A stretch of DNA of 64,000 nt from contig CAKOTU010000004.1 in assembly GCA_934120265.1 (NCBI GenBank), forward strand, positions 285-64,284, given 5' to 3'. Below are positions 3,169 to 35,164 of the stretch, piece after piece; position 1 is the stretch's first letter; each line of letters starts with the position of its first letter. The translations under genes and the position numbers were made by a program. The DNA comes from an uncultured Bacilli bacterium. GTDB taxonomy: Bacteria > Bacillota_I > Bacilli_A > RF39 > UBA660. The notes below the pieces were generated by a model, which made no database searches, was not told where the DNA came from, and worked only from the letters and a program-made list of their open reading frames with translations.

Positions 3169-3465
3169 ATGGATGGTGATAGTATGCGAATAAAAACTTA
3201 TACATTCGAAGGTAATAACTATGAATTAGTAAAAAATTACAAAGAAGGCTTTGAAAAGGATGCGGTAGAAAATCTTATAACTGACTATTTTAAAGAATAT
3301 GATTATATAGTTGGTGATTGGTCGTATGGTCATCTTCGTTTAAAAGGATTTTGTGATAAAAACAATAAATTATTTAAAATGATCAACAATATTGATAATT
3401 TGGATAATTACATAAAAGATAATTGTGCATATGACTGTCGTTATTTTGTTTTAAAACGTGTTTAA
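3169..3465 (+). CDS. yutD: YutD-like protein (DUF1027)
   Basis: DYIVGDWSYGHLRLKGF resembles the DUF1027 core, and the gene sits next to yunB as in B. subtilis. An alternative start at 3184 has the better RBS (ggtgat). Confidence 0.5.
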   Translation: MDGDSMRIKTYTFEGNNYELVKNYKEGFEKDAVENLITDYFKEYDYIVGDWSYGHLRLKGFCDKNNKLFKMINNIDNLDNYIKDNCAYDCRYFVLKRV

Positions 3466-3487
3466 GCATTATTATTAATAAAAAATA

Positions 3488-3678
3488 TTGAAAGATTAAA
3501 AATAATTATGTATAATTAATACAGTAAAGGTAGTGATAGTATGGTTAAAGAGATGAATATGAAACTAGCTCAAGCTTCAACCTGGGGGGGGGTTATTTAA
3601 TCATACTATAATATTAAATAGAAAAGAAAACACAAAGTTTCTAGATTTTTTGATAATCTAGATTTCTTTGTGTTTTTT
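3488..3678 (+). promoter_or_regulatory. Leader cassette copy 1: promoter, helix-enclosed mini-ORF with G9 tract, intrinsic terminator
   Basis: TTGAAA(3488)-17 nt-TATAAT(3511). Mini-ORF 3541-3600 encodes MVKEMNMKLAQASTWGGVI. G-run 3584-3592. atagtatggttaaa pairs with tttaatcatactat. Terminator 3630-3678: acacaaagtttctagat / atctagatttctttgtgt plus a T-run. Confidence 0.7.
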
Positions 3679-3823
3679 GTTGAACCTTTATGGATTTATA
3701 AAACAGAAAGAAGTGGTATTATAAGTACAATATTTTAGTGAAAGCTGTATTATGTCTATATGTTTATAATAAATAAAAAGGGGTATAATTAGAATGTATA
3801 ATAAAGAGAGGAGTAAGAAATAT

Positions 3824-5674
3824 ATGAAAAAGAAAGGATTTACTTTAATAGAGTTATTAGCAGTAATAGTAGTACTAGCAATAATAGCGCTAATCGCAAC
3901 ACCAATAGTAACAAGAGTAATAAATTCTAGTAAGGATTCTGCTAATAAAATAAGTGCAAGTAATTTTGCTAGTGAGGCTAATAAGTATGTAATAGAAGAA
4001 AGACTAAGTGGGAATATAAAGAATGGAAATATTTTTAATGAAGTGTCTAAAAGAATGAATGGTAAGAAACCTACTTCGGGAGTAGTTTATGCGGATGACA
4101 ATGGGAATATCGCTTTAGCTTTAGTATTTGATGATAAATGTTATACAAAGGAATACGGTAGTGATGAAATAAAAACAACTGACATTAATGAATGTCATGC
4201 CCCAGTAGATTATTTAGCACTTGGAAATACAGAGAATGATACAGAAGCAACATTCTTTAATGGACCTATCAAAAAAAGTAGTGTTGAAAAAATAGTGTTT
4301 GTAAATAGTAATCTTGTTCCAACAGATGCAATAGGAAAATGGAATGCAAGTGCAAGTGGTGAAGGAGATGTAGTTGCTTGGTACAAAGATGAAGATAAAA
4401 ATAACTTATACGAAGTATATATAGGTGGAAAAGACGGAGTAAAAGCTAATCCTAACTCATACAAATTATTTAATTATTTTACAAACTTAGTAAGTATAGA
4501 TTTAAAATATCTTGATACATCAAGCGTTATAGATATGTCTTTAATGTTTAATGATTGTTTAAATTTGACTACACTTAATTTAAGTAATTTTGATACATCA
4601 AGTGTTACAACTATGGCAGGTATGTTTCAGAACTGCTCCAAATTAATTACACTAGATTTAAGTAATTTTGATACTTCAAATGTTGTAAATATGAGAAATA
4701 TGTTTGCTTGGTGTTCAAATTTAAATGCCTTAGATTTAAGCAACTTTGACACGTCAAACGTTACTACTATGTATAGTATGTTTCAACTATGTTCAAACTT
4801 AACAACATTAGATGTAAGCCATTTTAATACATCAAACGTTACGAATATGTCATTTATGTTTAGCAAATGTTCAAGCTTAACAACATTAGATGTAAGTAAT
4901 TTTGATACATCAAACGTTACGAGTATGAAAGCTATGTTTCAACTATGTTCAAGTTTAACAACACTAGATGTAAGTAATTTTAATACATTGATGGTAACCG
5001 ATATGTCATATATGTTTAGCAAATGCTCAAGCTTAACAACGTTAGATGTAAGTAATTTTGACACCTCAAAGGTAACCAATATGGGATATATGTTTAATGA
5101 ATGCTCAAATTTGACAACATTAGATGTAAGCAATTTTGATACATCCAAAGTAACTGATATATCTCGTATGTTTCAAGGTTGTTCAAAATTAACCTATTTA
5201 GATGTAAGCAACTTTGATACATCGAATGTTACCAATATGCGTACTATGTTTCAAAAGTGTTCAAAATTAACTCAATTAGATGTAAGCAACTTTGATACAT
5301 CAAAAGTAACAGATATGGCTTATATGTTTTATGGATGTTCAAATTTAATAACATTAAACATAAGAGGCTTTAACACAACAAAAGTAACCGATATGAGTTA
5401 TATGTTTGAAAATTGTTCAAGGTTAACTAATTTAGATTTGAGTAGTTTTGAAACTAGTAAGTTACAAAATACGGAGCACATGTTTAATGGAAGTTCAAAA
5501 TTAGCAAATATTAATTTTTCAAAAGCAACATTTAACGCTGTAACTAAATATGATAAGATGTTTGGTGGATGTGGATTAATTAGTATTACAGTAAAAGATG
5601 ACGATGCAAAAACATTTATTGATGCTAGATTAAAAGATTCAAGTATTAATATTGAAGCAACAAAACAAAGCTAG
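3824..5674 (+). CDS. Modular prepilin-type protein: class III signal peptide, ~130-aa pilin-like head, 13 BspA/DUF285-type leucine-rich repeats
   Basis: MKKKGFTLIELLAVIVVLAIIALIATP. RBS gagaggag lies 10 nt before the ATG at 3824; the track start at 3794 has no RBS. The 25-aa periodic unit is LDVSNFDTSNVTNMxxMFxxCSxLTT. Confidence 0.85.
   Translation: MKKKGFTLIELLAVIVVLAIIALIATPIVTRVINSSKDSANKISASNFASEANKYVIEERLSGNIKNGNIFNEVSKRMNGKKPTSGVVYADDNGNIALALVFDDKCYTKEYGSDEIKTTDINECHAPVDYLALGNTENDTEATFFNGPIKKSSVEKIVFVNSNLVPTDAIGKWNASASGEGDVVAWYKDEDKNNLYEVYIGGKDGVKANPNSYKLFNYFTNLVSIDLKYLDTSSVIDMSLMFNDCLNLTTLNLSNFDTSSVTTMAGMFQNCSKLITLDLSNFDTSNVVNMRNMFAWCSNLNALDLSNFDTSNVTTMYSMFQLCSNLTTLDVSHFNTSNVTNMSFMFSKCSSLTTLDVSNFDTSNVTSMKAMFQLCSSLTTLDVSNFNTLMVTDMSYMFSKCSSLTTLDVSNFDTSKVTNMGYMFNECSNLTTLDVSNFDTSKVTDISRMFQGCSKLTYLDVSNFDTSNVTNMRTMFQKCSKLTQLDVSNFDTSKVTDMAYMFYGCSNLITLNIRGFNTTKVTDMSYMFENCSRLTNLDLSSFETSKLQNTEHMFNGSSKLANINFSKATFNAVTKYDKMFGGCGLISITVKDDDAKTFIDARLKDSSINIEATKQS
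4480..5520 (+). repeat. 13 in-frame ~75-bp LRR units (coordinates approximate)
   Basis: I counted 13 [NHGS]F[DNE]T[ST]xV motifs at 25-aa spacing. Confidence 0.8.
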
Positions 5675-5682
5675 AAAATAAG

Positions 5683-5716
5683 CACATAAGATTATATATT
5701 GTCTTATGTGTTTTTT
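5683..5716 (+). terminator. Intrinsic terminator after the first LRR-pilin gene
   Basis: cacataaga-(loop)-tcttatgtg followed by tttttt. Confidence 0.75.
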
Positions 5717-5782
5717 GACCAATAAAAACCATTTTAAAAAAGTGATAAACGTGTTATAATATTGTCATAGTGGAGGATAGAT

Positions 5783-6887
5783 ATGGAATTAAATGAAATA
5801 TATAGTATTTATAATAAATATCTAGAAAATATCCAAGAATTATGGAGGTTACTTTGACTTTGAAGCTAAAACCAAAGAAATAGAATCACTTGAGTTAAAG
5901 ATGAAAGATCCTAACTTTTGGAATGATAAACGAGAAAGCGAGAAAGCAATTTCTACTGCAAATTCATTAAAAGATATGATAGAAAAAGTAAAGAATCTAA
6001 AAGAAAAAATCGAAAGTAACTTTGAGATGATTGAAGAGTTAAGAAAATCTTATGATGAAGAATTAGTTGAGATGATTTCTAGTGATATAGAGGTTATAGG
6101 TAAGGAATTAGATGAAGTTGAAGTTTTAATGTTATTGTCTGGTCCATACGATAAAGATAACGCCATTGTAGAAATTCACTCTGGCGCAGGGGGAACAGAA
6201 GCTTGCGATTGGGCTAATATGTTATATCGTATGTATACAAGATGGTGTGAAAAGAAAAATTATAAAGTTGAGGTTATTGATAGTCAACCTGGAGAAGAAG
6301 TTGGAATTAAAAGTTTAACAATGTTTGTTAAAGGAATGAATGCTTTTGGATATTTAAAAAATGAAAAAGGAGTTCATCGTTTAGTTAGAATTTCTCCATT
6401 TGATTCAAATGCCAGAAGACATACATCATTTGCATCAATTGATGTAACCCCACTTATAGAAAATAGTGATATTAAAATAGAAATAAATCCTAGTGATATT
6501 AGGGTTGATGTTTATAGAAGTAGTGGTTGCGGTGGACAAGGCGTTAATACAACGGACTCGGCAGTAAGAATTACTCACTTTCCAACTAAGATTGTTGTTA
6601 CTTGTCAAAACGAACGTAGTCAAATACAAAATAAAGAAAAAGCTATGGAAGTTTTAAAAAGTAAGCTTTATCAATTGGAAATGGAAAAAAGAAATAATGA
6701 GTTAAAAGAACTAAAAGGAAATCAAAATGATATTAACTTTGGCTCACAAATAAGAAGTTATGTTATGTGTCCATATTCTATGGTAAAAGATCATAGAACT
6801 AATGTTGAAACAAGTAGCGTTGATAAAGTTTTAGATGGAGATATAGATTTGTTTATTAATGCTAGTTTGAAGGAAGTGAAGAAGTAA
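5783..6887 (+). CDS. prfB: Peptide chain release factor 2, expressed via programmed +1 frameshift
   Basis: ORF0 (5783-5854, MELNEIYSIYNKYLENIQELWRLL) ends at CTT TGA C. The +1 frame continues as DFEAKTKEIE... into the track ORF. GGQ motif present (SGCGGQGVNT). Confidence 0.95.
5844..5858 (+). promoter_or_regulatory. RF2 autoregulatory frameshift site
   Basis: Internal SD-like GGAGG (5844-5848), 3-nt spacer, then CTT TGA C (5852-5858). Confidence 0.9.
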
Positions 6888-7771
6888 TGTTTTTTAAAAG
6901 AAAAAATAAGATAGATGATAATTCTATTATGAAAGCTATTTACAAAAAGGGAAGATTAGTTAGATATGCGCAATTCCTTTTAGGAATTATGCTTGTTGCG
7001 TGTGCATTTAATGTTTTTCTTCTTCCTAATGATGTTGTATATGGCGTAGGCGGTATTGGTGTTATTTTAAATAAGACTAAAGGTATTAACCCTTCAATAG
7101 TTGTTTTGATAGGTTCATTAATTTTATTAGTATTGAGTTTCTTTTTACTTGGTAAGGAAGAAACTAAAAATTCAGTTATAGGATCACTTTTATATCCTTT
7201 ATTTATAGAATTAACCGCACCTTTAGTTCAATATGTAAATTTAGGTCATACAGAAATAATAGTTCAAATTGTTTTTGGAGCAGTTATATCCGGTTTAGGA
7301 CTTGGTTTAATTTTTAAGTCAGGATTTACAACAGGTGGAACTGACATACTAAATCAAATATTTGCTAAATATTTTAAAACTTCGATGGGTAAAGCAATGA
7401 TTTTTACAGATGGTTTAATTATTGCTGTTAGTTTATTTGTTTTTGGATTTGAAAAATTTATTTATTCACTAATAAATATGTATATTATAAGTGTTATGGC
7501 TGATAAAGTAATGCTTGGAATATCTAAATCAAAAGCATTTTATATAATAACAGATAATGAAACTAGTGTTAAAAAATTTATTTTGAACCATTTATCACAT
7601 GGTGTTACAGTATTAGAAGGTAGAGGTGGATATACTGGAAATAACCAAAAGGTTATTATGTGTATAGTTCCAACAAAAGAATATTTTATTGCTAAAGAAG
7701 GGATACATGCTATAGATCCTAATGCATTTTTCTTAGTAACAGATGCATACGAGGTATATGGTGGAGAATAG
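6887..7771 (+). CDS. YitT-family membrane protein (C-terminal DUF2179)
   Basis: Multi-TM N-terminal part with GGTDIL. The C-terminal VTVLEGRGGYTG block is typical of YitT/DUF2179. The ATG overlaps the prfB stop (TAATG). Confidence 0.7.
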   Translation: MFFKRKNKIDDNSIMKAIYKKGRLVRYAQFLLGIMLVACAFNVFLLPNDVVYGVGGIGVILNKTKGINPSIVVLIGSLILLVLSFFLLGKEETKNSVIGSLLYPLFIELTAPLVQYVNLGHTEIIVQIVFGAVISGLGLGLIFKSGFTTGGTDILNQIFAKYFKTSMGKAMIFTDGLIIAVSLFVFGFEKFIYSLINMYIISVMADKVMLGISKSKAFYIITDNETSVKKFILNHLSHGVTVLEGRGGYTGNNQKVIMCIVPTKEYFIAKEGIHAIDPNAFFLVTDAYEVYGGE

Positions 7772-7783
7772 AAGAGGTGTTAT

Positions 7784-8479
7784 ATGGACTTAATTAGAAT
7801 GAGAAATGTAAATAAAACATATAAAACAGGAGTAACTGCTATATATGATTTAAATCTAGATATAAAGAAAGGTGAGTTTGTTTTTATTATTGGTTCTACA
7901 GGTTGTGGGAAAAGTACTTTAATAAAAATGCTTTACCGTGAAGAAAAAGCCAACAGTGGAAAAATCATTGTTGGAGGTATTGATGTAAATAAATTAAGAA
8001 ATAGTAAGGTATATAAATTAAGAAGAAAACTTGGTGTTGTTTTCCAAGATTATAAATTATTACCAAAATTAACTGTATATGAAAATGTGGCTTTTGCTTT
8101 AGAGGTATTTGGAAACTCAAAAAGTGAGATTCATCCTAAAGTAATAAAAGCCTTAGAGTTAGTTGGATTAAAAGGTAAAGCAAAAAACTTCCCAACACAG
8201 TTATCAGGAGGGGAGCAGCAACGTGTTGCTATAGCTCGTGCCATTGTTAATGAACCTAAGTTATTGATTTGCGATGAACCAACGGGAAACCTAGATGAAG
8301 TAACTAGTATGGAAATAATGAAGGTACTAGAAGAAATTAATAAACTAGGAACCACAATTATTATGGTTACTCATGATACAACAATTGTTAATGCATTGAA
8401 AAAAAGAGTAATTGTATTAGATTCAGGTCGTATTTTAAAGGATTATAAGGAAGGAGAATATAAACATGAAGGTATTTAG
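7784..8479 (+). CDS. ftsE: Cell division ATP-binding protein FtsE
   Basis: Walker A GSTGCGKST, signature LSGGEQQRVAIARA, Walker B LLICDEPT. Followed by ftsX. Confidence 0.9.
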   Translation: MDLIRMRNVNKTYKTGVTAIYDLNLDIKKGEFVFIIGSTGCGKSTLIKMLYREEKANSGKIIVGGIDVNKLRNSKVYKLRRKLGVVFQDYKLLPKLTVYENVAFALEVFGNSKSEIHPKVIKALELVGLKGKAKNFPTQLSGGEQQRVAIARAIVNEPKLLICDEPTGNLDEVTSMEIMKVLEEINKLGTTIIMVTHDTTIVNALKKRVIVLDSGRILKDYKEGEYKHEGI

Positions 8480-9365
8480 AATTCTTTTTAGAGATATAAG
8501 AGATGCATTTAAAAGTGTCTTCAGGAACTTTTCTCTTTCAGTAGCGTCAATTTCTTGTATAACAATAACATTATTAGTAGTTGCTATTGCTTTCATCCTT
8601 TCTGAAAATGTTAATAATTTTGCAAATATTGTAGAAAAAGATGTTACAATTGTTGCTTTTATTGATAACAGTGCTAAACAAGAAGATTTAGAACAAATAA
8701 AAAATAAAATAAATGAGTTAGATAATATTGAAGAGGTAAATTTCGAATCAAGAACACAAATAATGGATGATATGAAAGCTTCTTCAGAAGTATTTAATAA
8801 TATTATGGAAAACTATACAGAAGATGATACTCCTGTTCAAGATACATACTTAATAAAAGTAAAAGATATTGATAAAATTGGTGATACTGCTAATCAAATT
8901 AAAGAAATAGAATTAGTAAGTAGTGTTAAGTATGGAGAAGGAATGGTTGATCAACTAATATCTGTATTTGATGTTGTTAGAAAAATAAGTATTATTGTAG
9001 TAGCCGCATTAATTTTGGTAACAGCGTTCCTAATTGCCAATACAATTAAAATTACTATTTTTTCAAGAAAAAGAGAAATTTCAATTATGCGTCTAGTAGG
9101 AGCTTCTAATATAAATATTAAAATACCATTTATTTTTGAGGGATTATTCTTAGGATTGTTAGGTTCAATAATTCCAGTACTTGCAACAACTTTTGGATAT
9201 GTTAGCTTATACAAACATTTTGGTGGACAATTATTCTCACCATTTATACGTTTAATAACTCCAGAACCATTTATATACGAGGTATCATTATTATTAGTAA
9301 TAATTGGTATGGTTGTTGGTATGTTTGGTAGTGTTAGAGCCGTTAAGAAACATTTGAAGATATAA
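8466..9365 (+). CDS. ftsX: Cell division permease-like protein FtsX
   Basis: N-terminal TM helix, a periplasmic-type domain, then 3 C-terminal TM helices. Overlaps ftsE by 14 nt. Confidence 0.85.
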   Translation: MKVFRILFRDIRDAFKSVFRNFSLSVASISCITITLLVVAIAFILSENVNNFANIVEKDVTIVAFIDNSAKQEDLEQIKNKINELDNIEEVNFESRTQIMDDMKASSEVFNNIMENYTEDDTPVQDTYLIKVKDIDKIGDTANQIKEIELVSSVKYGEGMVDQLISVFDVVRKISIIVVAALILVTAFLIANTIKITIFSRKREISIMRLVGASNINIKIPFIFEGLFLGLLGSIIPVLATTFGYVSLYKHFGGQLFSPFIRLITPEPFIYEVSLLLVIIGMVVGMFGSVRAVKKHLKI

Positions 9366-9381
9366 TTAAAATTATCAGTGT

Positions 9382-9413
9382 AAAGGTACAATTATTTGTA
9401 CCTTTTTCTTTTT
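9382..9413 (+). terminator. Intrinsic terminator after ftsX
   Basis: aaaggtaca-attattt-gtaccttt followed by ttctttt. Confidence 0.7.
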
Positions 9414-9419
9414 GAAACA

Positions 9420-9610
9420 TTGACAATAATTAATATTAAAAGGTATAATAAAAACAGTAAGGGTAGTGATAGTATGGTTAAAGAGATAAATAAAAATTTA
9501 ACTCAAAACCCGACATGGGGGGGGTATTTAATCATACTATAAAATTAAATAATAAAGAAAACACAAAGTTTCTAGACTTTTTAATAGTCTAGATTTCTCT
9601 GTGTTTTTTT
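9420..9610 (+). promoter_or_regulatory. Leader cassette copy 2 (G8 tract)
   Basis: TTGACA(9420)-18 nt-TATAAT(9444). Mini-ORF 9474-9542 encodes MVKEINKNLTQNPTWGGYLIIL. G-run 9517-9524. Terminator 9561-9610. Only ~52 nt separate the terminator from the ATG, and I see no second promoter. Confidence 0.7.
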
Positions 9611-9662
9611 GTTGTCCCTTTACTAAGTAAAGTAAATCTAAATAAAAGGAGGAGGAAATATT

Positions 9663-11438
9663 ATGAAAAATGAAAAAGGTTTTACTTTAATAGAGTTATT
9701 AGCAGTAATAGTAGTACTAGCAATAATAGCGCTAATCGCAACACCAATAGTAACAAGAGTAATAAATTCTAGTAAGGATTCTGCTAATAAAATAAGTGCA
9801 AGTAATTTTGCTAGTGAGGCTAATAAGTATGTAATAGAAGAAAGACTAAGTGGGAATATAAAGAATGGAAATATTTTTAATGAAGTGTCTAAAAGAATGA
9901 ATGGTAAGAAACCTACTTCGGGAGTAGTTTATGCGGATGACAATGGGAATATCGCTTTAGCTTTAGTATTTGATGATAAATGTTATACAAAGGAATACGG
10001 TAGTGATGAAATAAAAACAACTGACATTAATGAATGTCATGCCCCAGTAGATTATTTAGCACTTGGAAATACAGAGAATGATACAGAAGCAACATTCTTT
10101 AATGGACCTATCAAAAAAAGTAGTGTTGAAAAAATAGTGTTTGTAAATAGTAATCTTGTTCCAACAGATGCAATAGGAAAATGGAATGCAAGTGCAAGTG
10201 GTGAAGGAGATGTAGTTGCATGGTATAAAGATGAAGATAATAATAACTTATACGAAGTATATATAGGTGGAAAAGGTGGAGTAAAAGCTAATCCTAATTC
10301 TACTAAATTATTTAATTATTTTACAAACTTAGTAAGTATAGATTTTAAATATCTTGATACATCAAGTGTTACAAGTATGCAAGCAATGTTTCAGGACTGC
10401 TTTAAATTAACAACATTAGACTTAAGCGGTTTTGATACATCAAAAGTAACCGATATGGGTGGAATGTTTAATGATTGTTTAAATTTAACTACACTAGATG
10501 TAAGCAGTTTTAATACTTCAAACGTTACAAGCATGCGAGCTATGTTTCAAAAGTGTTCGAAACTAACTGCTTTGGATGTAAGCCATTTTGATACATCGAA
10601 TGTTACAAGTATGAGATATATGTTTAATAAATGCTCAAGTTTGACAATATTAGATGTAAGTCATTTTAATACATCAAATGTTACAAGTATGCAAGGAATG
10701 TTTGCCTGCTGTTCAAGTTTAACAACACTAGATGTGAGTCGTTTTAATACTTCAAACGTTACAAGCATGCGAGCTATGTTTGAACTTTGTTCAAATTTAA
10801 CAACATTAGATGTGAGTAATTTTGATACATCAGAGGTAACTAATATGACGTTTATGTTCAGTCAATGTTCAAGTTTAACAATATTAGATGTAAGCAACTT
10901 TGATACATCGAATGTTACAAATATGCATACTATGTTTCAGGACTGTTCTAAATTAAATGAATTAGATGTAAGTAACTTTAATACGTCAAGGGTAACTGAT
11001 ATGGGTGGTATGTTCAGTTTCTTAATAAATATTAAATCATTAGATGTTTCTCATTTTGATACATCAAATGTAACCAATATGAAATCTATGTTTAATGAAT
11101 GCAATAATTTGGAATCTTTAGATTTAAAAAATTTTAGTACAGGATTAGTAACAGATATGAGTTATATGTTTGAAAATTGTTATAAGTTGACTGATTTAGA
11201 TTTGAGTAGTTTTGAAACTAGTAAGTTACAAAATACGGAGCACATGTTTAATGGAAGTTCAAAATTAGCAACAATCAATTTCTCAAAAGCAACATTTAAC
11301 GCTATAACTAAATATGATAAGATGTTTGGTGGATGTGGACTGACTAGTATTACAGTAAAAGATGATGATGCAAAAACATTTATTGATGCTAGACTAAAAG
11401 ATTCAAGTATTAATATTGAAGCAACAAAGGTAAGCTAG
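9663..11438 (+). CDS. Modular prepilin-type protein, paralog of 3824-5674, with 12 BspA/DUF285-type LRR units
   Basis: MKNEKGFTLIELLAVIVVLAIIALIATP with RBS aaggaggagg. Nt 9681-10219 are identical to 3839-4377. The 3' ~290 nt are also near-identical. Confidence 0.85.
   Translation: MKNEKGFTLIELLAVIVVLAIIALIATPIVTRVINSSKDSANKISASNFASEANKYVIEERLSGNIKNGNIFNEVSKRMNGKKPTSGVVYADDNGNIALALVFDDKCYTKEYGSDEIKTTDINECHAPVDYLALGNTENDTEATFFNGPIKKSSVEKIVFVNSNLVPTDAIGKWNASASGEGDVVAWYKDEDNNNLYEVYIGGKGGVKANPNSTKLFNYFTNLVSIDFKYLDTSSVTSMQAMFQDCFKLTTLDLSGFDTSKVTDMGGMFNDCLNLTTLDVSSFNTSNVTSMRAMFQKCSKLTALDVSHFDTSNVTSMRYMFNKCSSLTILDVSHFNTSNVTSMQGMFACCSSLTTLDVSRFNTSNVTSMRAMFELCSNLTTLDVSNFDTSEVTNMTFMFSQCSSLTILDVSNFDTSNVTNMHTMFQDCSKLNELDVSNFNTSRVTDMGGMFSFLINIKSLDVSHFDTSNVTNMKSMFNECNNLESLDLKNFSTGLVTDMSYMFENCYKLTDLDLSSFETSKLQNTEHMFNGSSKLATINFSKATFNAITKYDKMFGGCGLTSITVKDDDAKTFIDARLKDSSINIEATKVS
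10322..11285 (+). repeat. 12 in-frame ~75-bp LRR units (coordinates approximate)
   Basis: I counted 12 F[DNSE]T[ST]xV motifs, one unit (25 aa) fewer than the paralog. Confidence 0.8.
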
Positions 11439-11474
11439 AAATAATTTGCAAAAATAATAATTTAATAACAAAAA

Positions 11475-11513
11475 ATGGAAAGTTTAAAAATGTATGGACT
11501 TTTCATTTTTTTT
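11475..11513 (+). terminator. Intrinsic terminator after the second LRR-pilin gene
   Basis: atggaaagt-(loop)-acttttcat followed by ttttttt. Confidence 0.7.
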
Positions 11514-11551
11514 GCTATATAATAAAAATCAATTTTATGGAGGTGATCTTT

Positions 11552-13858
11552 TTGATAAAAACAAACTTGCCAGTTATTTTGTTAAGAGGTCTTATATTGC
11601 TTCCAAATAACGAAATTAGATTAGAATTTGATAATGATTTGAGCAAAAACATAATTGATGTATCGGAACTGTTTCACGATAATATGTTACTAGTTGTAAG
11701 TTCTTTAAATCCACTTGAAGAAATACCTACAGAAAAAGATCTGCCTAGTATAGGGGTTGTTTCTAAGATAGTTAATAAGATTGAACTTCCAAATGGAAAA
11801 ACACGTGTTATCATAAAAGGTATTAATAGAGCTTATGTAAATGAATATTTAAACTTAAAACATCCTAGTGAGGTTTTAGAATCTATCATAACTAATATTG
11901 ATGATAAAGAGATAGAATCTAAAATGGAAAAAATAATGATAAATAAGATAAAAAGAGAACTTGAAATATATATTAAGAAAGTTTCTTATACTAGTAATAG
12001 CATTCTTTCTCTAGTTTCTAATATAAGTAGATTATCAAAATTAACTGATATAGTTGTTCCTAATATTTTAATTGATAACAATCGTTTACTTGTTTATTTA
12101 AATGAATCTGATCCTATGAAAAGAGGAGAGATGATTTTAGAAGATATATATTCTGAAAAAGAATCTTTTGAAATAGAAAAACAAATTGATTTAAAAGTTA
12201 AAAAAAATATGGAAGACAGTCAAAAAGAATATCTACTACGTGAAAAGTTAAAGTTAATTAAAGAAGAACTGGGTGATGTTAGTTCCAAGGATGATGAAGT
12301 AGAATCTATTAAAGAAAAAATAGCAAAATTAAAAGCTAATGATAAAATAAAAGAAAAGCTAAATAGCGAATTAAAGAAATACGAGTCCTTAAATCAAACT
12401 TCACCAGAAGTAGCTATTATAAAGAATTATATTGATTGGTTATTAGATCTACCTTGGGGTGAATATACAGAAGACAATACGGATTTAGATAAAGTATTGG
12501 AATCTTTAAATAAAAGTCATTTTGGATTAGAAAAAGTAAAGGATAGAATTATAGAATATCTTGCGGTTAAAATTAATGCGGATAGGTTAAAGAGTCCAAT
12601 TATATGCCTAGTTGGTCCTCCAGGAGTTGGTAAAACAACTTTAGCTCGTAGTATTGCAGAGAGTATAAATCGTAGATTTGTAAAAATTAGTGTTGGTGGG
12701 GTTAATGATGAAGCTGAAATAAAAGGACATCGCAGGACTTATCTTGGAGCAATGCCGGGAAAGATTATTCAAGCTATGAAAAAAGCAAAATCAAATAATC
12801 CTGTATTCTTAATTGATGAAATAGATAAGATGACTAACAATATAAAAGGAGATCCAGCTAGCGCTTTACTTGAAGTGTTGGATCCGGAACAAAATGAATA
12901 TTTTGTTGATAACTTTGTTGAAGAAGAGTATGACTTATCAAAAGTTATGTTTATAACTACTGCTAATTCATTAGATTCAATACCTGGTCCATTAAGAGAT
13001 AGACTAGAGATTATTGAACTTAATAGTTATACTGAGTATGAAAAAATGGATATAGCTAAGAAACATTTAATTCCTAGTTTATTAAACAGTCATAATGCTA
13101 AAAATATAAAGATTTTAGATAGTTCTATATTGGAAATAATTAGATATTATACTATGGAAGCTGGAGTTAGAAATCTTGAACGTAAATTAGAAGAAGTAAT
13201 CAGAAAAATTATTACAGATAGGTTAAAAAATAAAAAAGAAGATGTGGTTATTGTTGATGATGTTTCTAAGTATCTTGGTAATAGAAAATACAGTTTTGGA
13301 AAACTAGAAAAGAATGAAGTAGGAGTAGTAAATGGTCTTGCTTATACACCTTTTGGTGGGGATATTATTAAAATAGAAGTAAATTATTATAAAGGCCATG
13401 GTAATTTAATTTTAACGGGTTCTTTAGGTGATGTTATTAAAGAGAGTGCTCAAATAGCACTTAGTTATGTAAGATCAAATGCTAGTATTTTTGGTATAGA
13501 TAATGAAAAATTTATTAAAAATGATATACATATTCATATTCCTGATGGTTCTGTTCCTAAAGACGGACCAAGTGCTGGAATAGCTATTACAACGGCAATT
13601 ATTTCTTCTTTATCAAATCGTGTTGTAGATTCAAGCTTAGCTTATACTGGAGAAATAACTTTACGAGGTAATATACTTGCAATAGGTGGACTAAAAGAAA
13701 AAAGTATTGGAGCTTTGAGAAGCGGAATTAAAACGATTTATATACCAGAAGATAATACTAAAGATTTAGAAGAAATTCCTAATGAAATAAAAGAAAGAAT
13801 AAATTATGTAAGTTTTAATAATTATATGGAATTGTTTAAAAATTTAATTAAGAGGTAA
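11552..13858 (+). CDS. lon: ATP-dependent Lon protease
   Basis: Walker A GPPGVGKTT, Walker B FLIDEIDK, protease motif PKDGPSAGIA. A TTG start at 11552 lies 5 nt after ggaggtga; the track ATG at 11537 sits inside that RBS. Confidence 0.95.
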   Translation: MIKTNLPVILLRGLILLPNNEIRLEFDNDLSKNIIDVSELFHDNMLLVVSSLNPLEEIPTEKDLPSIGVVSKIVNKIELPNGKTRVIIKGINRAYVNEYLNLKHPSEVLESIITNIDDKEIESKMEKIMINKIKRELEIYIKKVSYTSNSILSLVSNISRLSKLTDIVVPNILIDNNRLLVYLNESDPMKRGEMILEDIYSEKESFEIEKQIDLKVKKNMEDSQKEYLLREKLKLIKEELGDVSSKDDEVESIKEKIAKLKANDKIKEKLNSELKKYESLNQTSPEVAIIKNYIDWLLDLPWGEYTEDNTDLDKVLESLNKSHFGLEKVKDRIIEYLAVKINADRLKSPIICLVGPPGVGKTTLARSIAESINRRFVKISVGGVNDEAEIKGHRRTYLGAMPGKIIQAMKKAKSNNPVFLIDEIDKMTNNIKGDPASALLEVLDPEQNEYFVDNFVEEEYDLSKVMFITTANSLDSIPGPLRDRLEIIELNSYTEYEKMDIAKKHLIPSLLNSHNAKNIKILDSSILEIIRYYTMEAGVRNLERKLEEVIRKIITDRLKNKKEDVVIVDDVSKYLGNRKYSFGKLEKNEVGVVNGLAYTPFGGDIIKIEVNYYKGHGNLILTGSLGDVIKESAQIALSYVRSNASIFGIDNEKFIKNDIHIHIPDGSVPKDGPSAGIAITTAIISSLSNRVVDSSLAYTGEITLRGNILAIGGLKEKSIGALRSGIKTIYIPEDNTKDLEEIPNEIKERINYVSFNNYMELFKNLIKR

Positions 13859-16431: not shown

Positions 16432-18540
16432 ATGAAGAATAATAAGGGTTTTGCAATAAGTAGTGTTGTTTATGCCATGTTAATACTTTTTTTAGGACTT
16501 ATCTTATTAATTTTAGGGAATCTAGCTAGTAGAAAGGCTATGTTTGATAAGGAAAAAAATGAAATACTTATGAGATTTAACGGTTATGAAGGGACCTTAT
16601 GTACTTTGATTGAAGGTGGGGCATATGATATTGGTTCTAAATATGAATGTGAATTAGGTGATAATGATCCAAAAATATTTTATGTTTTGGAATCAAGTGG
16701 AAGTAATATATCACTAATTATGAGTGCTAATGTTGATTCAAACGGGAAAGCTATAACTTCAACAAACATTCCTGATGACAAGGGTTTTTCTGCATGGGTG
16801 ACTCTAGGGGATTATATGTCCGCAGGAGGAACGGCATCTGATTTTGGTAGTGTTGGTGAGAATAGTCTTGGCCCACTTACAGCTTTAAAAAAACTAAAAG
16901 AGTTTACAAAACCATGGAAGAAATTAGCGCCATCACAAATTGTATTACCGACAGCAAATCAGGTAGCAACGGCAGGTGGAGATACAAAGTGGAGCGAAAG
17001 TTCAACCGGCAATGGATTTAGCTCTGCAACGTGGTTATATGATAATTTAAATGGAACTACTAATGCAGTTTCAGGTATATATGGTTATTGGACATCAACA
17101 GCTGTTGCATCCACTTCGAATCGTGCTTGGCGTGTGTACTCAACAGGTAACTTTCTTTCATATTTTGTTTCTTATGATGAAGGATACGGTATACGTCCAG
17201 TAATCACAATTTCAAAATCACAACTAGAAGTACCAATATTGTGTGTAGCTAAGACTACAGCAACAACAGGAAATGTATCTCGAGGAAGATATGAGTATGG
17301 TGATGAATACGAATGTGAATTAGGTGATGGACAAAAAAGAACATTCTTTATTTTGGATAAAACATCTACAGAAGTATCTTTAATAATGAGTGAGAACTTG
17401 GGAGCAGAAGCTGGATGGTGCAGTGATGATGATTGTAAAACAGACAATGTATGGGATAATACAAAAGGTCCAATAACTGCAAAAAGTGAACTTGAAAAAA
17501 GAACTACTAGTTGGAGTAAAATATCAAATAAAACAAAGATTACATTACCAACAGCACAACAAGTAGCAAAAGCCTCTGGCGAAACATTTAATAATTCTTC
17601 TGTTTCTGGGTTAGCAAAATGGTTGTGTGGGAATTTAAAAAGTGTTGTTGGATATTGGACATCAACACAGTTTATTGAAAATACATATGGTGCTTGGTAT
17701 GTTGGCTATAGCAATGATATTCGTGTTGATAGTATTGGAAATGACTATGATTATGGTATACGTCCAGTAATCACAATACCAAAAGCACAAATAAAATCAC
17801 CAAAGGTACAAAAATATAGAAATGGTAGTGAAGTATATTTTAATGTAACAACAGGTGTAAAATGTACATCATCAGATTATACAGAAACACAAAGCAATAT
17901 AGGTGTAAATAGTGGATGTATGAAGTTCTATATTTTTAATGATGATGGTGGTGACACATTAAATTTAATTTTAGATCATAATACAACTGCAACAATTTTA
18001 TGGAATTCAAGTGGAAGTAGTACTAGCGGTCCAAAAGAAGCGTTAACACAATTAAAAACTGATACAGAAAATTGGAATGGAACGGAAACTCCAACAAACT
18101 ATGCGATTGATCAAACAGGCCAAACAAGTGGTGCAAAATATATAATAGATTATAGTGCATACAAGGCAAGATTTATAACAGCACAGGAAGTAGCAACAAT
18201 CACAGGAAATACATCTTGGAATGAAAAAAATGCAAGTAGCGTATTTTACTTTGATACAAATGCAACAAGTAATAGTTCAACATGTCAAAGTGGGGATATA
18301 AGTGGATGCGCTTATGGATGGCTATATGATAGAACAAAACCTGATTGTACGACATATGGATGTAAAAACAATTCAGATAAGTCAACATTGGGATATTGGA
18401 CAGTTTCTCCTCGTGCTGAAAGTATTAGAGAAAATTGGTGCGTTGCTTATGAAGGTTATCTTGGCGATTATATTGTTAACTTCCCAGCTTATTATGGTAT
18501 ACGCCCAGTTATAGAAATATCGGCAAAGAAACTTTTATAA
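16432..18540 (+). CDS. Three-module surface protein with a degenerate pilin-like N-terminus (no Glu+5)
   Basis: MKNNKGFAISSVVYAMLILFLGLILLIL. There are two type-A modules (YECELGD...LIMS...LPTA.QVA...GYWTST...YGIRPVITI) and one type-B module homologous to the 26834 C-terminus. RBS agaggtga. Confidence 0.75.
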   Translation: MKNNKGFAISSVVYAMLILFLGLILLILGNLASRKAMFDKEKNEILMRFNGYEGTLCTLIEGGAYDIGSKYECELGDNDPKIFYVLESSGSNISLIMSANVDSNGKAITSTNIPDDKGFSAWVTLGDYMSAGGTASDFGSVGENSLGPLTALKKLKEFTKPWKKLAPSQIVLPTANQVATAGGDTKWSESSTGNGFSSATWLYDNLNGTTNAVSGIYGYWTSTAVASTSNRAWRVYSTGNFLSYFVSYDEGYGIRPVITISKSQLEVPILCVAKTTATTGNVSRGRYEYGDEYECELGDGQKRTFFILDKTSTEVSLIMSENLGAEAGWCSDDDCKTDNVWDNTKGPITAKSELEKRTTSWSKISNKTKITLPTAQQVAKASGETFNNSSVSGLAKWLCGNLKSVVGYWTSTQFIENTYGAWYVGYSNDIRVDSIGNDYDYGIRPVITIPKAQIKSPKVQKYRNGSEVYFNVTTGVKCTSSDYTETQSNIGVNSGCMKFYIFNDDGGDTLNLILDHNTTATILWNSSGSSTSGPKEALTQLKTDTENWNGTETPTNYAIDQTGQTSGAKYIIDYSAYKARFITAQEVATITGNTSWNEKNASSVFYFDTNATSNSSTCQSGDISGCAYGWLYDRTKPDCTTYGCKNNSDKSTLGYWTVSPRAESIRENWCVAYEGYLGDYIVNFPAYYGIRPVIEISAKKLL

Positions 18541-18812: not shown

Positions 18813-18832
18813 ATTTTAATAGGAGGAATATT

Positions 18833-22468: not shown

Positions 22469-22484
22469 TATTATCTAATATTAA

Positions 22485-22511: not shown

Positions 22512-22549
22512 GTGCTTTTATGCTATACTCTAAAAGGTAGGATGATGGT

Positions 22550-26491: not shown

Positions 26492-26508
26492 GCTATAAAC
26501 TAAAAATG

Positions 26509-26701
26509 TTGATATTAAAAAATGAATATTGTATAATAAAGACAGTAAAGGTAGTGATGGTATGGTTAAAGAGAAAAGTATAAACATAACTCAAAACTCA
26601 ACCTGGGGGGGGGGTATATTTAATCATACTATAATAATAAATAAAAAAGAAAACACAAAGTTTCTAGACTTTTTTGTAGTCTAGATTTCTTTGTGTTTTT
26701 T
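26509..26701 (+). promoter_or_regulatory. Leader cassette copy 3 (G10 tract; mini-ORF reads into the terminator)
   Basis: TTGATA(26509)-17-TATAAT(26532). Mini-ORF 26562-26684 encodes MVKEKSINITQNSTWGGGIFNHTIIINKKENTKFLDFFVV. G-run 26605-26614. Terminator 26653-26701. The stop TAG at 26682 lies in the 3' arm of the terminator. Confidence 0.7.
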
Positions 26702-26833
26702 GTTGACCTTTATAGGAAAGGAGTTGTTGTATAAGTACATAAAAATGCCAAAAACATGTATTATGGCTGGATGTTTATTATGAACAAAACAGGGTATAAT
26801 TAAAGTATAAAGTAAATAAGGAGGTAAGAAAAG

Positions 26834-27970
26834 ATGAAAAAGAAAGGATTTACTTTAATAGAATTACTAGCGGTAATAGTAGTATTAGCAATAATAGCAT
26901 TGATTGCAACACCAATAGTAATGAACACAATTAAAAAATCACAAAAAGGAGCAGCTGAGAGAAGTGCAGATAACTATATTGATGCTGTAGAAACAGCAGT
27001 TGCAACAGCAAGACTAGATAATAATGATGTTCCAGATGGAACATACACAATAGATGAAAATGGAAATCTATTAGTACCAAGTTTACCAAATGGCAAATTA
27101 ACAATCGAAATGAATGGAAATAAACCAAAGGGTGGAACAATCACAATAAAGAATGGGCAAGTAACAACTGACTCAAAGATGACAGTAGGAAGTTATGAAG
27201 TATCATACAACCCAACAACAAATAAATATGAAGCGTCAGAAGAAGGAACATCAACTAAAACATATGCAAACGGAGAAGTAGTATATTTTAACGTAACAAC
27301 AGGAGAAAAATGTTCAGCATCAGATTATACAGATGATATCATGGAAAAAGACGGCTGTTTGAAATTCTATGCATTTAATGATGAAGGTGGAAACAAAGTA
27401 AATTTATTACTAGATCATAATACAACAGCAACAGTAGCATGGAATTCAAGTAAAAGTAATACAAATGGTCCAAAAGAAATATTAGATAGTTTAAAAACAG
27501 CTACAGCGTCATGGAAAGGAACGGAAACTCCAGCAAATTATACAATGGATCAAACGAGTAAAACAAGTAAAGCAAGCTATACAATAGATTATAGTGGATA
27601 TAAAGCAAGATTAATAACAGCGCAAGAAATAGCTCAAATAGTAGGCAATACATCTTGGGATGAGAAAAGTGCTAGTAGTGAATATTATTTTGATTCTAAA
27701 TCAAGTTTTGCAAGTTCTACATGTACAAGCGGAAATACAACAGGTTGCCAATATGGATGGCTTTACGATAAAACAAGCGCAAGTTGTACAACATATGGAT
27801 GTTTAAATAATTCAGGTAATAGATACTGGACAGCTTCTTCTTATAGCGGTGATTCTAGTAATGCTTGGTATGTGGATTATAGTGGCTCAATAGGAAATGA
27901 TGGTGTTAACTATCCTGGTTTCTATGGTGTACGTCCAGTTATAGAGGTATTAAAATCTAAACTTTCGTAA
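26834..27970 (+). CDS. Modular prepilin-type protein with a type-B DUF1566-like C-terminal module
   Basis: MKKKGFTLIELLAVIVVLAIIALIATPIVM. The pilin head contains LTIEMNGNKPKGGTITIKNGQV. The C-terminal ~240 aa are collinear with module 3 of 16432-18540 and end in YGVRPVIEV. Confidence 0.85.
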   Translation: MKKKGFTLIELLAVIVVLAIIALIATPIVMNTIKKSQKGAAERSADNYIDAVETAVATARLDNNDVPDGTYTIDENGNLLVPSLPNGKLTIEMNGNKPKGGTITIKNGQVTTDSKMTVGSYEVSYNPTTNKYEASEEGTSTKTYANGEVVYFNVTTGEKCSASDYTDDIMEKDGCLKFYAFNDEGGNKVNLLLDHNTTATVAWNSSKSNTNGPKEILDSLKTATASWKGTETPANYTMDQTSKTSKASYTIDYSGYKARLITAQEIAQIVGNTSWDEKSASSEYYFDSKSSFASSTCTSGNTTGCQYGWLYDKTSASCTTYGCLNNSGNRYWTASSYSGDSSNAWYVDYSGSIGNDGVNYPGFYGVRPVIEVLKSKLS

Positions 27971-33253: not shown

Positions 33254-33929
33254 GTTGATCGTTGTTGAAGGGACTGATTGTTCTGGAAAAGAAACTCAGA
33301 CTAATCTTTTATTAACTAATCTACATAATGATAATATAAAGGTTGAAAAATTTAGCTTTCCGAATTATCAATCACCAACTGGAAAAATAATAGGTGGACC
33401 TTATTTAGGAAAAAGTTATATTTGTGATGGTTGGTTTCCTGAGGGAGCTCCAAAAGTAGATCCTAAAGTTGCCGCTCTATATTATGCAGCTGATAGAAAA
33501 TATAATATTTATAAGATAAATTTTTTGCTCGAAAATGGTGTAAATGTTATTTTAGATAGATATGTATATTCCAATATGGCTCATCAAGGTGGAAAAATAA
33601 AAGATAATAATGAAAGATTTGCTATGTATGATTGGCTTGATAAGTTGGAATTTGGTTTGTTAGAACTTCCTGAGGCAGATATTAAAGTGTTCTTACATTT
33701 ACCTGTTGAACAAGCAGCTAAGCTTCGCATGGGAAGAGAAGAAGCTCTAGATGAGAACGAAAAGGACATAAATCATTTAAAAGATGCAGAAAGAGCTTAC
33801 AAGGAAATAGCTAATAAATATGGTTTCAAAACAATTGAGTGTAATGTTGGTAATGATATAAGAACTATTGACACTATTCAAGATGAATTATATGATTTTA
33901 TAAAGAAAGAGATTTCTTTCAGAAATTAG
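33243..33929 (+). CDS. tmk: Thymidylate kinase-like protein (variant P-loop)
   Basis: VVEGTDCSGKETQ (canonical form is EGxDGxGK[ST]T). The DRY motif is present (ILDRYVYSN). Confidence 0.6.
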   Translation: MRGKLIVVEGTDCSGKETQTNLLLTNLHNDNIKVEKFSFPNYQSPTGKIIGGPYLGKSYICDGWFPEGAPKVDPKVAALYYAADRKYNIYKINFLLENGVNVILDRYVYSNMAHQGGKIKDNNERFAMYDWLDKLEFGLLELPEADIKVFLHLPVEQAAKLRMGREEALDENEKDINHLKDAERAYKEIANKYGFKTIECNVGNDIRTIDTIQDELYDFIKKEISFRN

Positions 33930-34096
33930 TTATTGTATAATAAAGACAGTAAGGGTAGTGATAGTATGGTTAAAGAGACAAATGTATTAATTAAAAAATC
34001 AACCTGGTGGGGTATTTAATCATACTATAATAATAAAAAATAAAGAAAACGCAAAGTTTCTAGACTTTTTAGTAGTCTAGATTTCTTTGTGTTTTT
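33913..34096 (+). promoter_or_regulatory. Leader cassette copy 4 (interrupted G tract)
   Basis: TATAAT at 33936; the -35 region falls inside the tmk 3' end. Mini-ORF 33966-34019 encodes MVKETNVLIKKSTWWGI. The tract is ggtgggg at 34006-34012. Terminator 34049-34096. Confidence 0.65.
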
Positions 34097-34228
34097 ATGT
34101 GTACCTTTATAGGAAAGAAGTTGTTGTATAAGTACATAAATGTGTCGAAAACATGTATTATGACTAGATGTTTATAATAAACAAAATAGGGTATAATTAA
34201 AATGTAAATCATAAGGGAGGTAAAAAAG

Positions 34229-35164
34229 ATGAAAAAAAGAGGATTTACTTTAATAGAGTTACTAGCGGTAATAGTAGTATTAGCAATAATCGCACTTATT
34301 GCAACACCAATAGTAATGAACACAATAAAGAATGCTAAGAAAGGAGCTGCAGAAAGAAGCGCAGATAGCTATCTTAAACAATTAGAATTAACAATAGCTG
34401 AAACTAGGTTAGAAAATAAACCAGTATCTGATGGTACATATTCTATAAATGCAGAAGGAAATCTAGAAGGAAATGGTTTAATAACACCATTAGTAGTAGA
34501 AATGAATGGAAATAAACCAACTGGAGGAACAGTAGTAATAACAAATGGCGAGGTATCACCATCAGAAACAAATATGATAATAGGAGAATATAATTTACGT
34601 TATAATGAAACATCAAAGAGCTATACTGCCGAAGTAGCAGTTAAATTATGTAAAAAAGCATCAAGTGTAAATTTAAGCGATTTAAAATTAGGTGATGAAT
34701 TTACATGTGATTTAGGTGATGAAGAATCAACTAAAAACTTAGTATTCTATGTGTTAGAAAAAAATGGTTCACAAGTATCTTTGATTATGAATAAAGTATT
34801 CACAACTCCAGCAGGAGATAAAGTTCCATATTCAATGAAAGCTAATGTATTTAAACTTTTCAAATATACTAAACTAGATGAATCACAAATTACTTTACCA
34901 AGTGGAGAGCAAATTGCCGCAGCAAGTAATAATACAACTTGGACACCAAGTGGTTCTAATACAGCTTTAGTTACAAATCAAATGCCAAATTGGTTAAAAA
35001 CAAATCTAGAGGTTACTGGTACATACTGTTATTGGACATCTACTGAGTTTGATTCTAGTAAACAATGGGGTGCTGGATTAAAAGGTTTATATGCTGAAAC
35101 AGCAACATCTGCAACTTGTGGATTCCGTCCAGTTATAACAGTCTCAACATCTGATTTAGGTTAA
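34229..35164 (+). CDS. Modular prepilin-type protein with one type-A DUF1566-like module
   Basis: MKKRGFTLIELLAVIVVLAIIALIATPIVM. The pilin head contains VVEMNGNKPTGGTVVITNGEV. Module: GDEFTCDLGD...SLIMN...ITLPSGEQIAAA...CYWTST...CGFRPVITVS. Confidence 0.85.
   Translation: MKKRGFTLIELLAVIVVLAIIALIATPIVMNTIKNAKKGAAERSADSYLKQLELTIAETRLENKPVSDGTYSINAEGNLEGNGLITPLVVEMNGNKPTGGTVVITNGEVSPSETNMIIGEYNLRYNETSKSYTAEVAVKLCKKASSVNLSDLKLGDEFTCDLGDEESTKNLVFYVLEKNGSQVSLIMNKVFTTPAGDKVPYSMKANVFKLFKYTKLDESQITLPSGEQIAAASNNTTWTPSGSNTALVTNQMPNWLKTNLEVTGTYCYWTSTEFDSSKQWGAGLKGLYAETATSATCGFRPVITVSTSDLG

Follow-up and report, generated by a model that had tools for sequence, protein, structure and literature searches.

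A dispersed family of modular type IV pilin genes in an uncultured gut Bacilli lineage: evidence for recent module conversion and for putative poly-G leader-peptide attenuators

Introduction

In a 64,000-nucleotide (nt) stretch of DNA from an uncultured Bacilli bacterium (assembly GCA_934120265.1, contig CAKOTU010000004.1; the whole stretch is referred to here as the window), two genes encoding leucine-rich repeat (LRR) proteins stand as direct repeats on either side of prfB, yitT, ftsE and ftsX, and each of them is preceded by a short leader open reading frame (ORF). How did these two paralogs, gene 1 and gene 2 (Table 1), come to share a perfectly identical 5′ segment when their repeat arrays differ, and what is the leader that lies in front of each of them? 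The interpretation that we consider probable is that both genes belong to a dispersed family of modular type IV pilins, that the pilin module has recently been converted between family members, and that each locus of the family lies behind a poly-G leader-peptide attenuator switch.

Results and Discussion

We compared the two loci by pairwise global alignment with MAFFT (positions 3400-5800 against 9330-11560) and by a separate repeat search of the window. The longest run without a mismatch was exactly 539 nt at an offset of 5842, and the repeat search returned the same pair at 100% identity; a preliminary description of this DNA had placed the identity at 3839-4377 and 9681-10219, which are exactly these 539 nt. 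The block comprises the pilin module and the linker, from mature residue 1 to approximately residue 180 (179 codons). Its 5′ edge is sharp and falls at the codon of signal-peptide cleavage, and its 3′ edge is graded, with 57/60, 53/60 and 55/60 positions identical just downstream, as far as about 4535/10377 (about 92% over ~150 nt). The arrays of 78-nt repeats are ~65-80% identical and differ by one 78-nt (one-unit) indel, in agreement with the earlier view that the central LRR arrays have diverged. The 3′ ends of the genes had been called near-identical. Similarity is indeed high over the last ~300 nt (5376-5674 against 11140-11438), but at ~92-95% (50/60, 60/60, 55/60, 56/60 and 56/60 positions) it falls short of near-perfect identity. 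If divergence were 1.7%, the lowest between-strain value observed in this block, the probability of finding no difference in 539 nt would be ~1e-4, and at 5-7.6% it would be below 1e-12. Chance is therefore excluded as the cause of the 539-nt identity.

Both genes encode predicted prepilins that continue into an LRR array. Pfam searches identified the N_methyl domain (PF07963/IPR012902) at 31.9 bits in gene 1 and 33.8 bits in gene 2, against a cut-off of 21.2, and DUF285 (PF03382) with E-values of 3e-119 and 5.5e-74, respectively. The N-termini, MKKKG/FTLIELLAVIVVLAIIALIATPIV in gene 1 and MKNEKG/FTLIE in gene 2 (the slash marks the cleavage site), are class III (prepilin) signal peptides, in which a short basic leader with a terminal Gly precedes a mature part with Phe at +1, Glu at +5 and ~20 hydrophobic residues. 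The start of gene 1 had been put at 3794 and is likelier to be at 3824, where MKKKG/FTLIE begins with a GGAG 9 nt upstream. In the AlphaFold2 model of gene 2, a helix at residues 9-62 (54 residues) and strands at 86-121, with predicted local distance difference test (pLDDT) values of 65-83, are followed by a linker with pLDDT below 50 (127-206) and by an LRR solenoid with pLDDT >90 (230-590). A Foldseek search with this model matched LRR structures in the LRR part only. A PDB sequence search likewise returned LRR proteins, together with geopilin and MshA, which match the N-terminal helix only (first ~60 residues). The matches of a full-length protein search were mostly DUF285 repeat proteins, with PF07963 present in a handful of the top 120. 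Given that N_methyl and DUF285 occur in one ORF and that the model falls into two parts, we classify genes 1 and 2 as putative modular type IV pilins onto which an LRR module has been grafted.

PilB (vWA) and PilC (lectin) of Streptococcus sanguinis have a comparable design, in which, as here, an IPR012902/N_methyl pilin module is joined to a non-pilus binding module in a monoderm host. The present proteins differ from them in that the pilin module has a DUF285/BspA-type LRR solenoid grafted onto it (in the pilin c3 of Table 1, a DUF6273-like module), in that the genes are scattered among housekeeping genes with no pil locus, and in that they form a large, variable family whose members would be switched one by one. 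Modular pilins were treated by Raynaud et al. (2021, PNAS, PMC8179133), in whose main text an LRR-pilin architecture does not appear. Compared with BspA-family/DUF285 surface proteins (PF03382), genes 1 and 2 have the same 26-residue repeats, a strong Pfam match and a repeat number that varies among alleles, whereas most database relatives lack the prepilin N-terminus. DUF285/BspA LRR arrays would thereby join the modules displayed on type IV filaments.

The origin of the identical block was assessed by comparing four alleles. Two are those of genes 1 and 2 in the window (W_c1 and W_c2). The third, L001, represents the gene 2 site and comes from a syntenic metagenome scaffold with flanking genes 92-96% identical to the window, and the fourth, L032, represents the gene 1 site and comes from the metagenome-assembled genome (MAG) CAKPHO01 ('uncultured Bacilli bacterium'), with flanks ~93% identical to the window. 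Within the block, W_c1 and W_c2 show 0/539 differences; W_c1 differs from L032 at 10 nt, of which 8 are in synonymous codon changes, and from L001 at 37 nt, of which 27 are in synonymous codon changes. Purifying selection cannot remove synonymous differences, yet the paralogs show none. This implies that selection at the protein level cannot explain the identity of the block, which we interpret as a product of recent copying.

Different segments of these genes have different nearest relatives. The type of 5′ untranslated region (UTR) and the first codons pair W_c1 with L001 (long UTR, MKKKG) and W_c2 with L032 (short UTR, MK(N/K)EKG), the head block pairs W_c1 with W_c2, 14 informative sites in the 3′ coding part pair W_c1 with L001 and W_c2 with L032, and the flanks pair by position. 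The number of LRR units is 13, 12, ~10 and ~9 among the alleles. The lack of any difference in the block and this patchwork across strains support the proposal in the preliminary description that the mosaic arose by non-reciprocal exchange. Its further suggestion, that conversion is restricted to the gene ends, was not supported, as all four alleles share a conserved stretch over the last ~300 nt (97-100% identity between W_c2 and L001). Because this 3′ similarity is common to all alleles across strains, it provides no evidence for conversion of that kind, and a conserved C-terminal cap or older common descent would account for it better than homogenization within one genome. In the scenario that we favor, a recent non-reciprocal recombination event (gene conversion) would have copied the pilin module between the paralogs, and the repeat arrays would evolve apart through gain and loss of units (9-13 units among alleles) and substitution. 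A crossover between the two repeats would be expected to remove prfB, and it is reasonable to infer that the product would not survive.

Two other explanations of the identity deserve consideration. Gene 1 may be a very young segmental copy, made without conversion between old paralogs by joining the 5′ part of gene 2 to another array when a cassette was inserted between yutD and prfB. As this would lead one to expect, gene 1 and its leader (window ~3456-5704) are missing from the syntenic L001, where the order is yunB-yutD-prfB-yitT-ftsE-ftsX-[IS]-pilin-lon (IS, insertion sequence) with nothing between yutD and prfB, and cassettes are gained and lost between strains. However, L032 has a 539-aa (amino acid) DUF285 pilin at the yutD-prfB site, with a distal array and flanks 92.7-93.6% identical to the window; since this gene is 10 nt away from the block, the occupied site must predate the block that shows no differences. 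Between genes 1 and 2, moreover, the leaders are only 77-91% identical, and the 5′UTRs are of different types. We consider a young copy improbable on these grounds. The exact identity could also be an artefact of assembly or polishing, with two similar repeats collapsed into one consensus. The assembly method of the window is not known, and in metagenomes the contigs of this lineage are often broken at a leader or at the 5′ end of a pilin gene, two points that would suit an artefact. Yet the head domain is found at both sites in other assemblies, at 92-98% identity, the contig is continuous through both copies with unique flanks, the block starts abruptly at the cleavage codon and fades out gradually on its 3′ side, and the differences that could have been erased amount to at most a few per cent. 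An artefact thus seems to us highly improbable.

As for the leaders, each consists of a conserved module of ~190 nt in which a near-consensus promoter is followed by a short ORF that includes a tract of G8-G11 and then by an intrinsic terminator. The promoter is kept in all four copies of the module in the window and is the best match in its region for genes 1 and 2; an SD-like (Shine-Dalgarno-like) GGTAGTGAT lies 3 nt upstream of the leader ATG of gene 1. These leaders had been described as clearly diverged. That is so for a variable loop, but overall they are 77-91% identical in the repeat search, with near-invariant flanks around the loop, and the mini-ORFs, far from being merely diverged, form a conserved, putatively regulatory module. 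A 14-bp stem is predicted around the segment that runs from the leader start codon through the variable loop to the G tract, with the ATG in the 5′ arm and the 3′ arm located after the tract. Folding z-scores range from -4.5 to -7.0 (RNAalifold, RNAfold), and across 30 distinct copies the pairs of the stem are maintained, variants being few. A terminator hairpin (ΔG of -17 to -28 kcal/mol) followed by a U run is present in 30/30 copies, with compensatory changes in the inner hairpin. In members with a short UTR (gene 2, L002, L024 and others), no promoter was detectable between the terminator and the ribosome-binding site of the gene.

Several other readings of the leader were tried and dropped. 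No Rfam family matched the leaders at the gathering score, and a permissive threshold gave only chance-level matches (E of at least 0.2), which led us to drop a known riboswitch or leader family. A riboswitch-like reading was abandoned, since variation is greatest in the loop that the stem closes off, and this loop keeps the ORF open. Upstream of the genes there is a single G8-G10 run only and no canonical G-quadruplex (G4) motif, which requires four separate G-runs, and a G-quadruplex reading of the tract was set aside for this reason.

Pattern scans of a species-representative genome collection and of metagenomes yielded ~40 further leader copies, mainly in two MAGs (8 in CAKPHO01 and 9 in 'uncultured Tenericutes bacterium UMGS688'). 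About 15 matches in Proteobacteria and other taxa, as well as a metagenome set beginning with MVKFFPYII, were discarded as chance. A prepilin gene with the same N-terminus was the next gene after the leader in 28/28 copies with readable downstream DNA, and the products of the genes downstream of leaders ranged from 157 to 676 aa. Three diverged leaders (L005, at 4523-4697, L034 and L041) have a different hairpin and keep MVK-x10-TWGG with a G9/G10 tract; in these, the TAA that closes the long frame overlaps the pilin's GTG start codon. The fact that this diverged family keeps the arrangement and not the sequence argues that the arrangement itself may be the functional unit of the leader. The contigs carrying these three leaders are binned as Muribaculaceae; they are AT-rich and probably mis-binned.

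The leader ORF consists of MVK, ~10 variable codons and (P/S)T-W-G-G across a T+G(n) tract, and the stops of the three frames occupy fixed positions that are the same in 30/30 distinct copies. The frame that we call alpha runs into a TAA where the 3′ arm begins, leaving 24 nt to the terminator, and beta into a TAA or TAG where this arm finishes, leaving 13 nt. The third frame, gamma, meets no stop for 54-63 nt, crossing the spacer and the terminator's 5′ half before a TAG in the hairpin. This is so in 30/30 copies, and the frame would give a peptide of 38-40 aa with the pattern ...TW(GG)-[LIV]FNHTI[IV]L-NNKENTKFLDF[FL][VI]V. When only the 16-nt spacer was shuffled, gamma was still open in 34% of trials, and a single-substitution test for stop avoidance in the long frame had little power, as only 3% of substitutions make a stop. 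G9 followed by T, which is found in most copies, leads to the alpha frame and a 19-aa peptide. Within the window, gene 1 is in alpha (G9), gene 2 in beta (G8), c3 in gamma (G10) and c4 in alpha (GGTGGGG). The long-frame copies have G8+T (L043), G6 (L065), G10+TA (c3 of the window) or no tract (L056, L061, L064). Overall, tract lengths of 6, 8, 9, 10 and 11 were seen. Over 340 nt, two samples of the same gene (L002 and L003) differ in nothing but tract length, G9 versus G11, and one orthologous locus has G9, G8 and G9 in three samples (L022, L043 and L045, respectively).

We read these leaders as, most likely, poly-G phase-variable leader-peptide attenuators. A slipped-strand change in the G tract would set the reading frame of the leader. 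In the long frame, the leading ribosome would run into the terminator and melt the hairpin, allowing transcription to continue into the pilin gene; gamma alleles would be ON and alpha alleles OFF, and beta alleles, such as that of gene 2, would possibly be intermediate. Once transcribed, the 14-bp stem would close over the leader start codon, so that only the first ribosome following the polymerase would translate the leader. On this model, every pilin locus would switch on and off stochastically and independently of the others.

A mechanism of this type has been described for pil1 and pil3 of Streptococcus gallolyticus, where the leader peptide varies in length as GCAGA repeats are gained or lost (Danne et al., 2014, PLoS Pathog, PMC3894217). 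Peptides that end at least 28 nt upstream of the terminator result in low expression, and those that end beside or within it result in high expression through ribosome-mediated melting of the hairpin (PMC3894217). The order of parts is the same in the two systems (promoter, repeat-bearing leader ORF, intrinsic terminator, pilus gene), the length of the repeat sets a frame that stops either ~24-39 nt upstream (low) or within the hairpin (high), and the consensus state is mostly 'low' in both. The systems differ in that the repeat is a G8-G11 mononucleotide tract here and ~13-23 GCAGA pentamers there, and in that single type IV (class III signal) pilin genes are involved here, at no fewer than 8 dispersed loci per genome, whereas S. 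gallolyticus has two loci with sortase-pilus operons. The extra 14-bp stem predicted to sequester the leader start codon is also peculiar to the present leaders, which belong to an uncultured lineage. Our literature searches found no description of a poly-G leader/pilin system, and S. gallolyticus was the sole precedent for the mechanism that they returned.

Several observations weigh against the combined interpretation given at the outset. The switch is deduced only from the way the parts are arranged. The tract is exactly G9 in ~26/35 copies, and 16/16 copies of two MAG consensus genomes are in alpha or beta and none in gamma; this dominance fits a switch that is mostly OFF and also fits a fixed, mutation-free G9 element. 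The differences in tract length between assemblies could be errors of sequencing or assembly, and the amino-acid conservation of the long frame could in part be a by-product of conserved RNA helices. Genes 1, 3 and 4 have an extra ~150 nt of 5′UTR with weak promoter-like sites and thus may be partly leader-independent. Type IV pilus assembly genes were not found within the 64-kb window, nor was a prepilin peptidase gene or one for an assembly ATPase or platform protein. The case for conversion is built on four alleles, among which the gene at the c2 site of CAKPHO01 (not recovered) is missing.

Two alternatives to a switch were weighed. It is possible, although we do not think it probable, that the G tract is a fixed G9 element acting at the RNA level and not a heritable mutational switch. 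Such an element could support programmed +1 ribosomal frameshifting or transcriptional slippage, or serve as the target of a C/U-rich small RNA; in Helicobacter pylori, the variable G-repeat in the tlpB leader is targeted by the small RNA RepG. Besides the predominance of exactly G9 followed by T and the 0/16 long-frame copies in the two MAGs, it speaks for a fixed element that a +1 shift from alpha leads exactly to the long frame and that GGG GGG G is slippery. Against this, the length of the tract varies, including between otherwise identical copies, and copies in which it is replaced by non-slippery sequence are fixed in the long (four copies) or a short frame (three copies), which suggests that the frame is set at the DNA level. 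The leader might instead be an independent small gene, for a small RNA or a 19-40-aa protein, that travels with the pilins and does not control them. Its organization as a complete promoter-to-terminator unit and the promoter-like sequences that follow the terminator in long-UTR members are compatible with this idea, which is nonetheless quite unlikely in view of the strict linkage and co-orientation with a prepilin gene in 28/28 cases, the short-UTR members without a detectable promoter between terminator and ribosome-binding site, and the diverged leaders that couple the stop of the long frame to the pilin start codon.

If poly-G attenuation operates, it would do so at many sites, as the leader-pilin unit is not confined to genes 1 and 2. 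The N-terminus of the family occurs five times in the window (3839, 9681, 26849, 34244 and 50416), and leaders precede the four genes at 3824, 9663, 26834 and 34229; the members are dispersed among housekeeping genes and all lie on the + strand. Two more prepilin-like genes start at 16432 and 22106. The latter encodes a plain 120-aa pilin with the family N-terminus and is followed by genes for Wzy_C (O-antigen-ligase-like), a family-2 glycosyltransferase and GtrA (22106-25284), a layout that resembles pilin O-glycosylation loci; no poly-G leader lies upstream. The former (16432-18540) encodes a 702-aa protein with a prepilin-like N-terminus that lacks Glu5 (MKNNKG/FAISSVVY) and with three DUF6273-like modules, the last of which is 55% identical to the C-terminal module of pilin c3. 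This identity suggests that modules are shared between family members.

The occupancy of sites also differs between relatives. In addition to the absence of gene 1 from L001, CAKPHO01 has an extra leader-pilin cassette (L025, 3107-5267) at a place where the window has none (60791/60792). A more distant relative with a lepA 88% identical to that of the window has a DUF285 pilin upstream of this gene (L071, 187-1500), and at the lepA site of the window lies c3 (26834-27970), a pilin with an unrelated module. These three cases indicate that cassettes have been gained, lost and exchanged between sites. No target-site duplications or other mobile-element signatures were present at the edges of the cassette insertions examined. 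Since gene 1 is absent from L001, and since the unit occupies four sites in the window and others in relatives, it looks incidental that genes 1 and 2 flank prfB-ftsX; the earlier picture of a variable-cassette locus constrained by essential genes is not upheld.

An IS30-like element is found in L001 (6176-7865, with HTH_38 and 233-aa ORFs on the minus strand). It interrupts the leader of the pilin at the gene 2 site within the variable loop of the ORF, so that promoter and start codon lie on one side of it and G tract and terminator on the other. Ten of the contigs recovered (L007, L009, L034, L036, L039, L041, L049, L055, L059 and L063) end in the leader or in the first bases of the pilin. 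That so many metagenome contigs end there indicates that the repeated family breaks short-read assemblies, and the family copy number per genome is probably underestimated.

Pilin variation in Neisseria gonorrhoeae proceeds by G4-dependent gene conversion between pilE and pilS. As in that system, the transfer between pilin copies proposed here would be non-reciprocal, and pilE also has a G-rich element with its own promoter upstream of the pilin gene. In contrast to pilS, whose copies are promoterless partial donors, each of the two copies in the window is a full-length ORF that has a promoter, a leader and a ribosome-binding site of its own and is not a silent cassette, and the part converted would be the conserved pilin module and not the variable region. 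We see only a slight chance that the transcribed G tract also stimulates recombination, like the G4 element at pilE.

Genomic Context

The coordinates of the features discussed here are collected in Table 1. The window has a GC content of 28% overall (27-29% along positions 1-64000), a GC skew that is strongly positive throughout (+0.23 to +0.36), and long ORFs that are nearly all on the + strand. These features would suit a segment of the leading strand in a low-GC Firmicute. Sporulation genes are present (yunB and a spoVID-like gene), and the host is an uncultured, AT-rich (28% GC), spore-forming gut Bacilli lineage. The gene that follows gene 2 is lon. In prfB, CTT TGA C at 5852-5858, preceded by an SD-like GGAGG, is a classical programmed +1 frameshift site, and the ORF listed at 5901-6887 is the downstream part of prfB only. 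Two T-box leaders score above the Rfam gathering threshold, one at 18592-18793, upstream of the ORF at 18800-21373, and one at 56900-57080, upstream of the ORFs at 57116-59856. A tandem-like direct repeat of 275 nt (326-600 and 611-885, 85% identical) lies inside the ORF at 8-1414.

Table 1. Positions of the pilin genes, their leaders and neighboring features in the window.
Feature	Position	Strand	Description
Gene 1 (c1)	3824..5674	+	616 aa; prepilin signal, pilin module, 13 DUF285 LRR units, C-terminal cap
Gene 2 (c2)	9663..11438	+	591 aa; putative modular type IV pilin, 12 DUF285 LRR units; Pfam
Identical block, copy 1	3839..4377	+	539 nt, in gene 1; repeat search and alignment
Identical block, copy 2	9681..10219	+	539 nt, in gene 2; repeat search and alignment
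LRR array of gene 1	4496..5554	+	13 units of 78 nt (26 aa)
Leader promoter, gene 1	3488..3516	+	TTGAAA-17-TATAAT, 11/12; best sigma-70-like match in 3400-5950
14-bp stem, gene 1 leader	3536..3609	+	Arms 3536-3549 and 3596-3609; RNAalifold, RNAfold
Leader ORF, gene 1	3541..3600	+	19 aa, MVKEMNMKLAQASTWGGVI then stop; alpha frame, stop 24 nt before terminator
Poly-G tract, gene 1 leader	3584..3592	+	G9, inside leader ORF
Intrinsic terminator, gene 1 leader	3624..3678	+	Long interrupted hairpin and U run
Leader promoter, gene 2	9420..9449	+	TTGACA-18-TATAAT, 12/12
Leader ORF, gene 2	9474..9542	+	22 aa, MVKEINKNLTQNPTWGGYLIIL then stop; beta frame, stop 13 nt before terminator
Poly-G tract, gene 2 leader	9517-9524	+	G8
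Leader terminator, gene 2	9555..9610	+	
c3, leader and pilin	26505..27970	+	G10 at 26605-26614; 378-aa pilin with DUF6273-like module, 26834-27970
c3 leader ORF	26562-26684	+	40 aa, long gamma frame, ends inside terminator
c4, leader and pilin	33917..35164	+	Interrupted tract GGTGGGG, 17-aa leader ORF, 311-aa pilin
Housekeeping block between genes 1 and 2	5783..9365	+	Pfam
prfB	5783-6887	+	Pfam; +1 frameshift site at 5852-5858
yitT	6887-7771	+	Pfam
ftsE	7784-8479	+	Pfam
ftsX	8466-9365	+	Pfam

Conclusion

Gene conversion among paralogs of surface proteins is ordinary by itself, and it is the context that matters here. We tentatively propose, while giving it somewhat less than an even chance, that this bacterium has ~10 modular type IV pilins (with LRR, DUF6273-like and other modules), each toggled by a poly-G tract, and that their modules are reshuffled by conversion and by turnover of cassettes. 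If this is true, it would amount to combinatorial adhesin or antigen variation for the type IV pili of an uncultured Gram-positive gut bacterium. The leaders would represent the second known case of repeat-controlled leader-peptide attenuation, and the first with a homopolymeric tract, the first in control of type IV pilins and the first in which many loci of one genome are used in this way. From very little DNA, n loci would provide 2^n surface states in an abundant uncultured gut lineage, and the poor assembly of genomes at these sites would be explained. The rule that links tract length to frame, and frame to the distance between stop and terminator, could allow the ON and OFF states of these pilins to be obtained from metagenomic reads.

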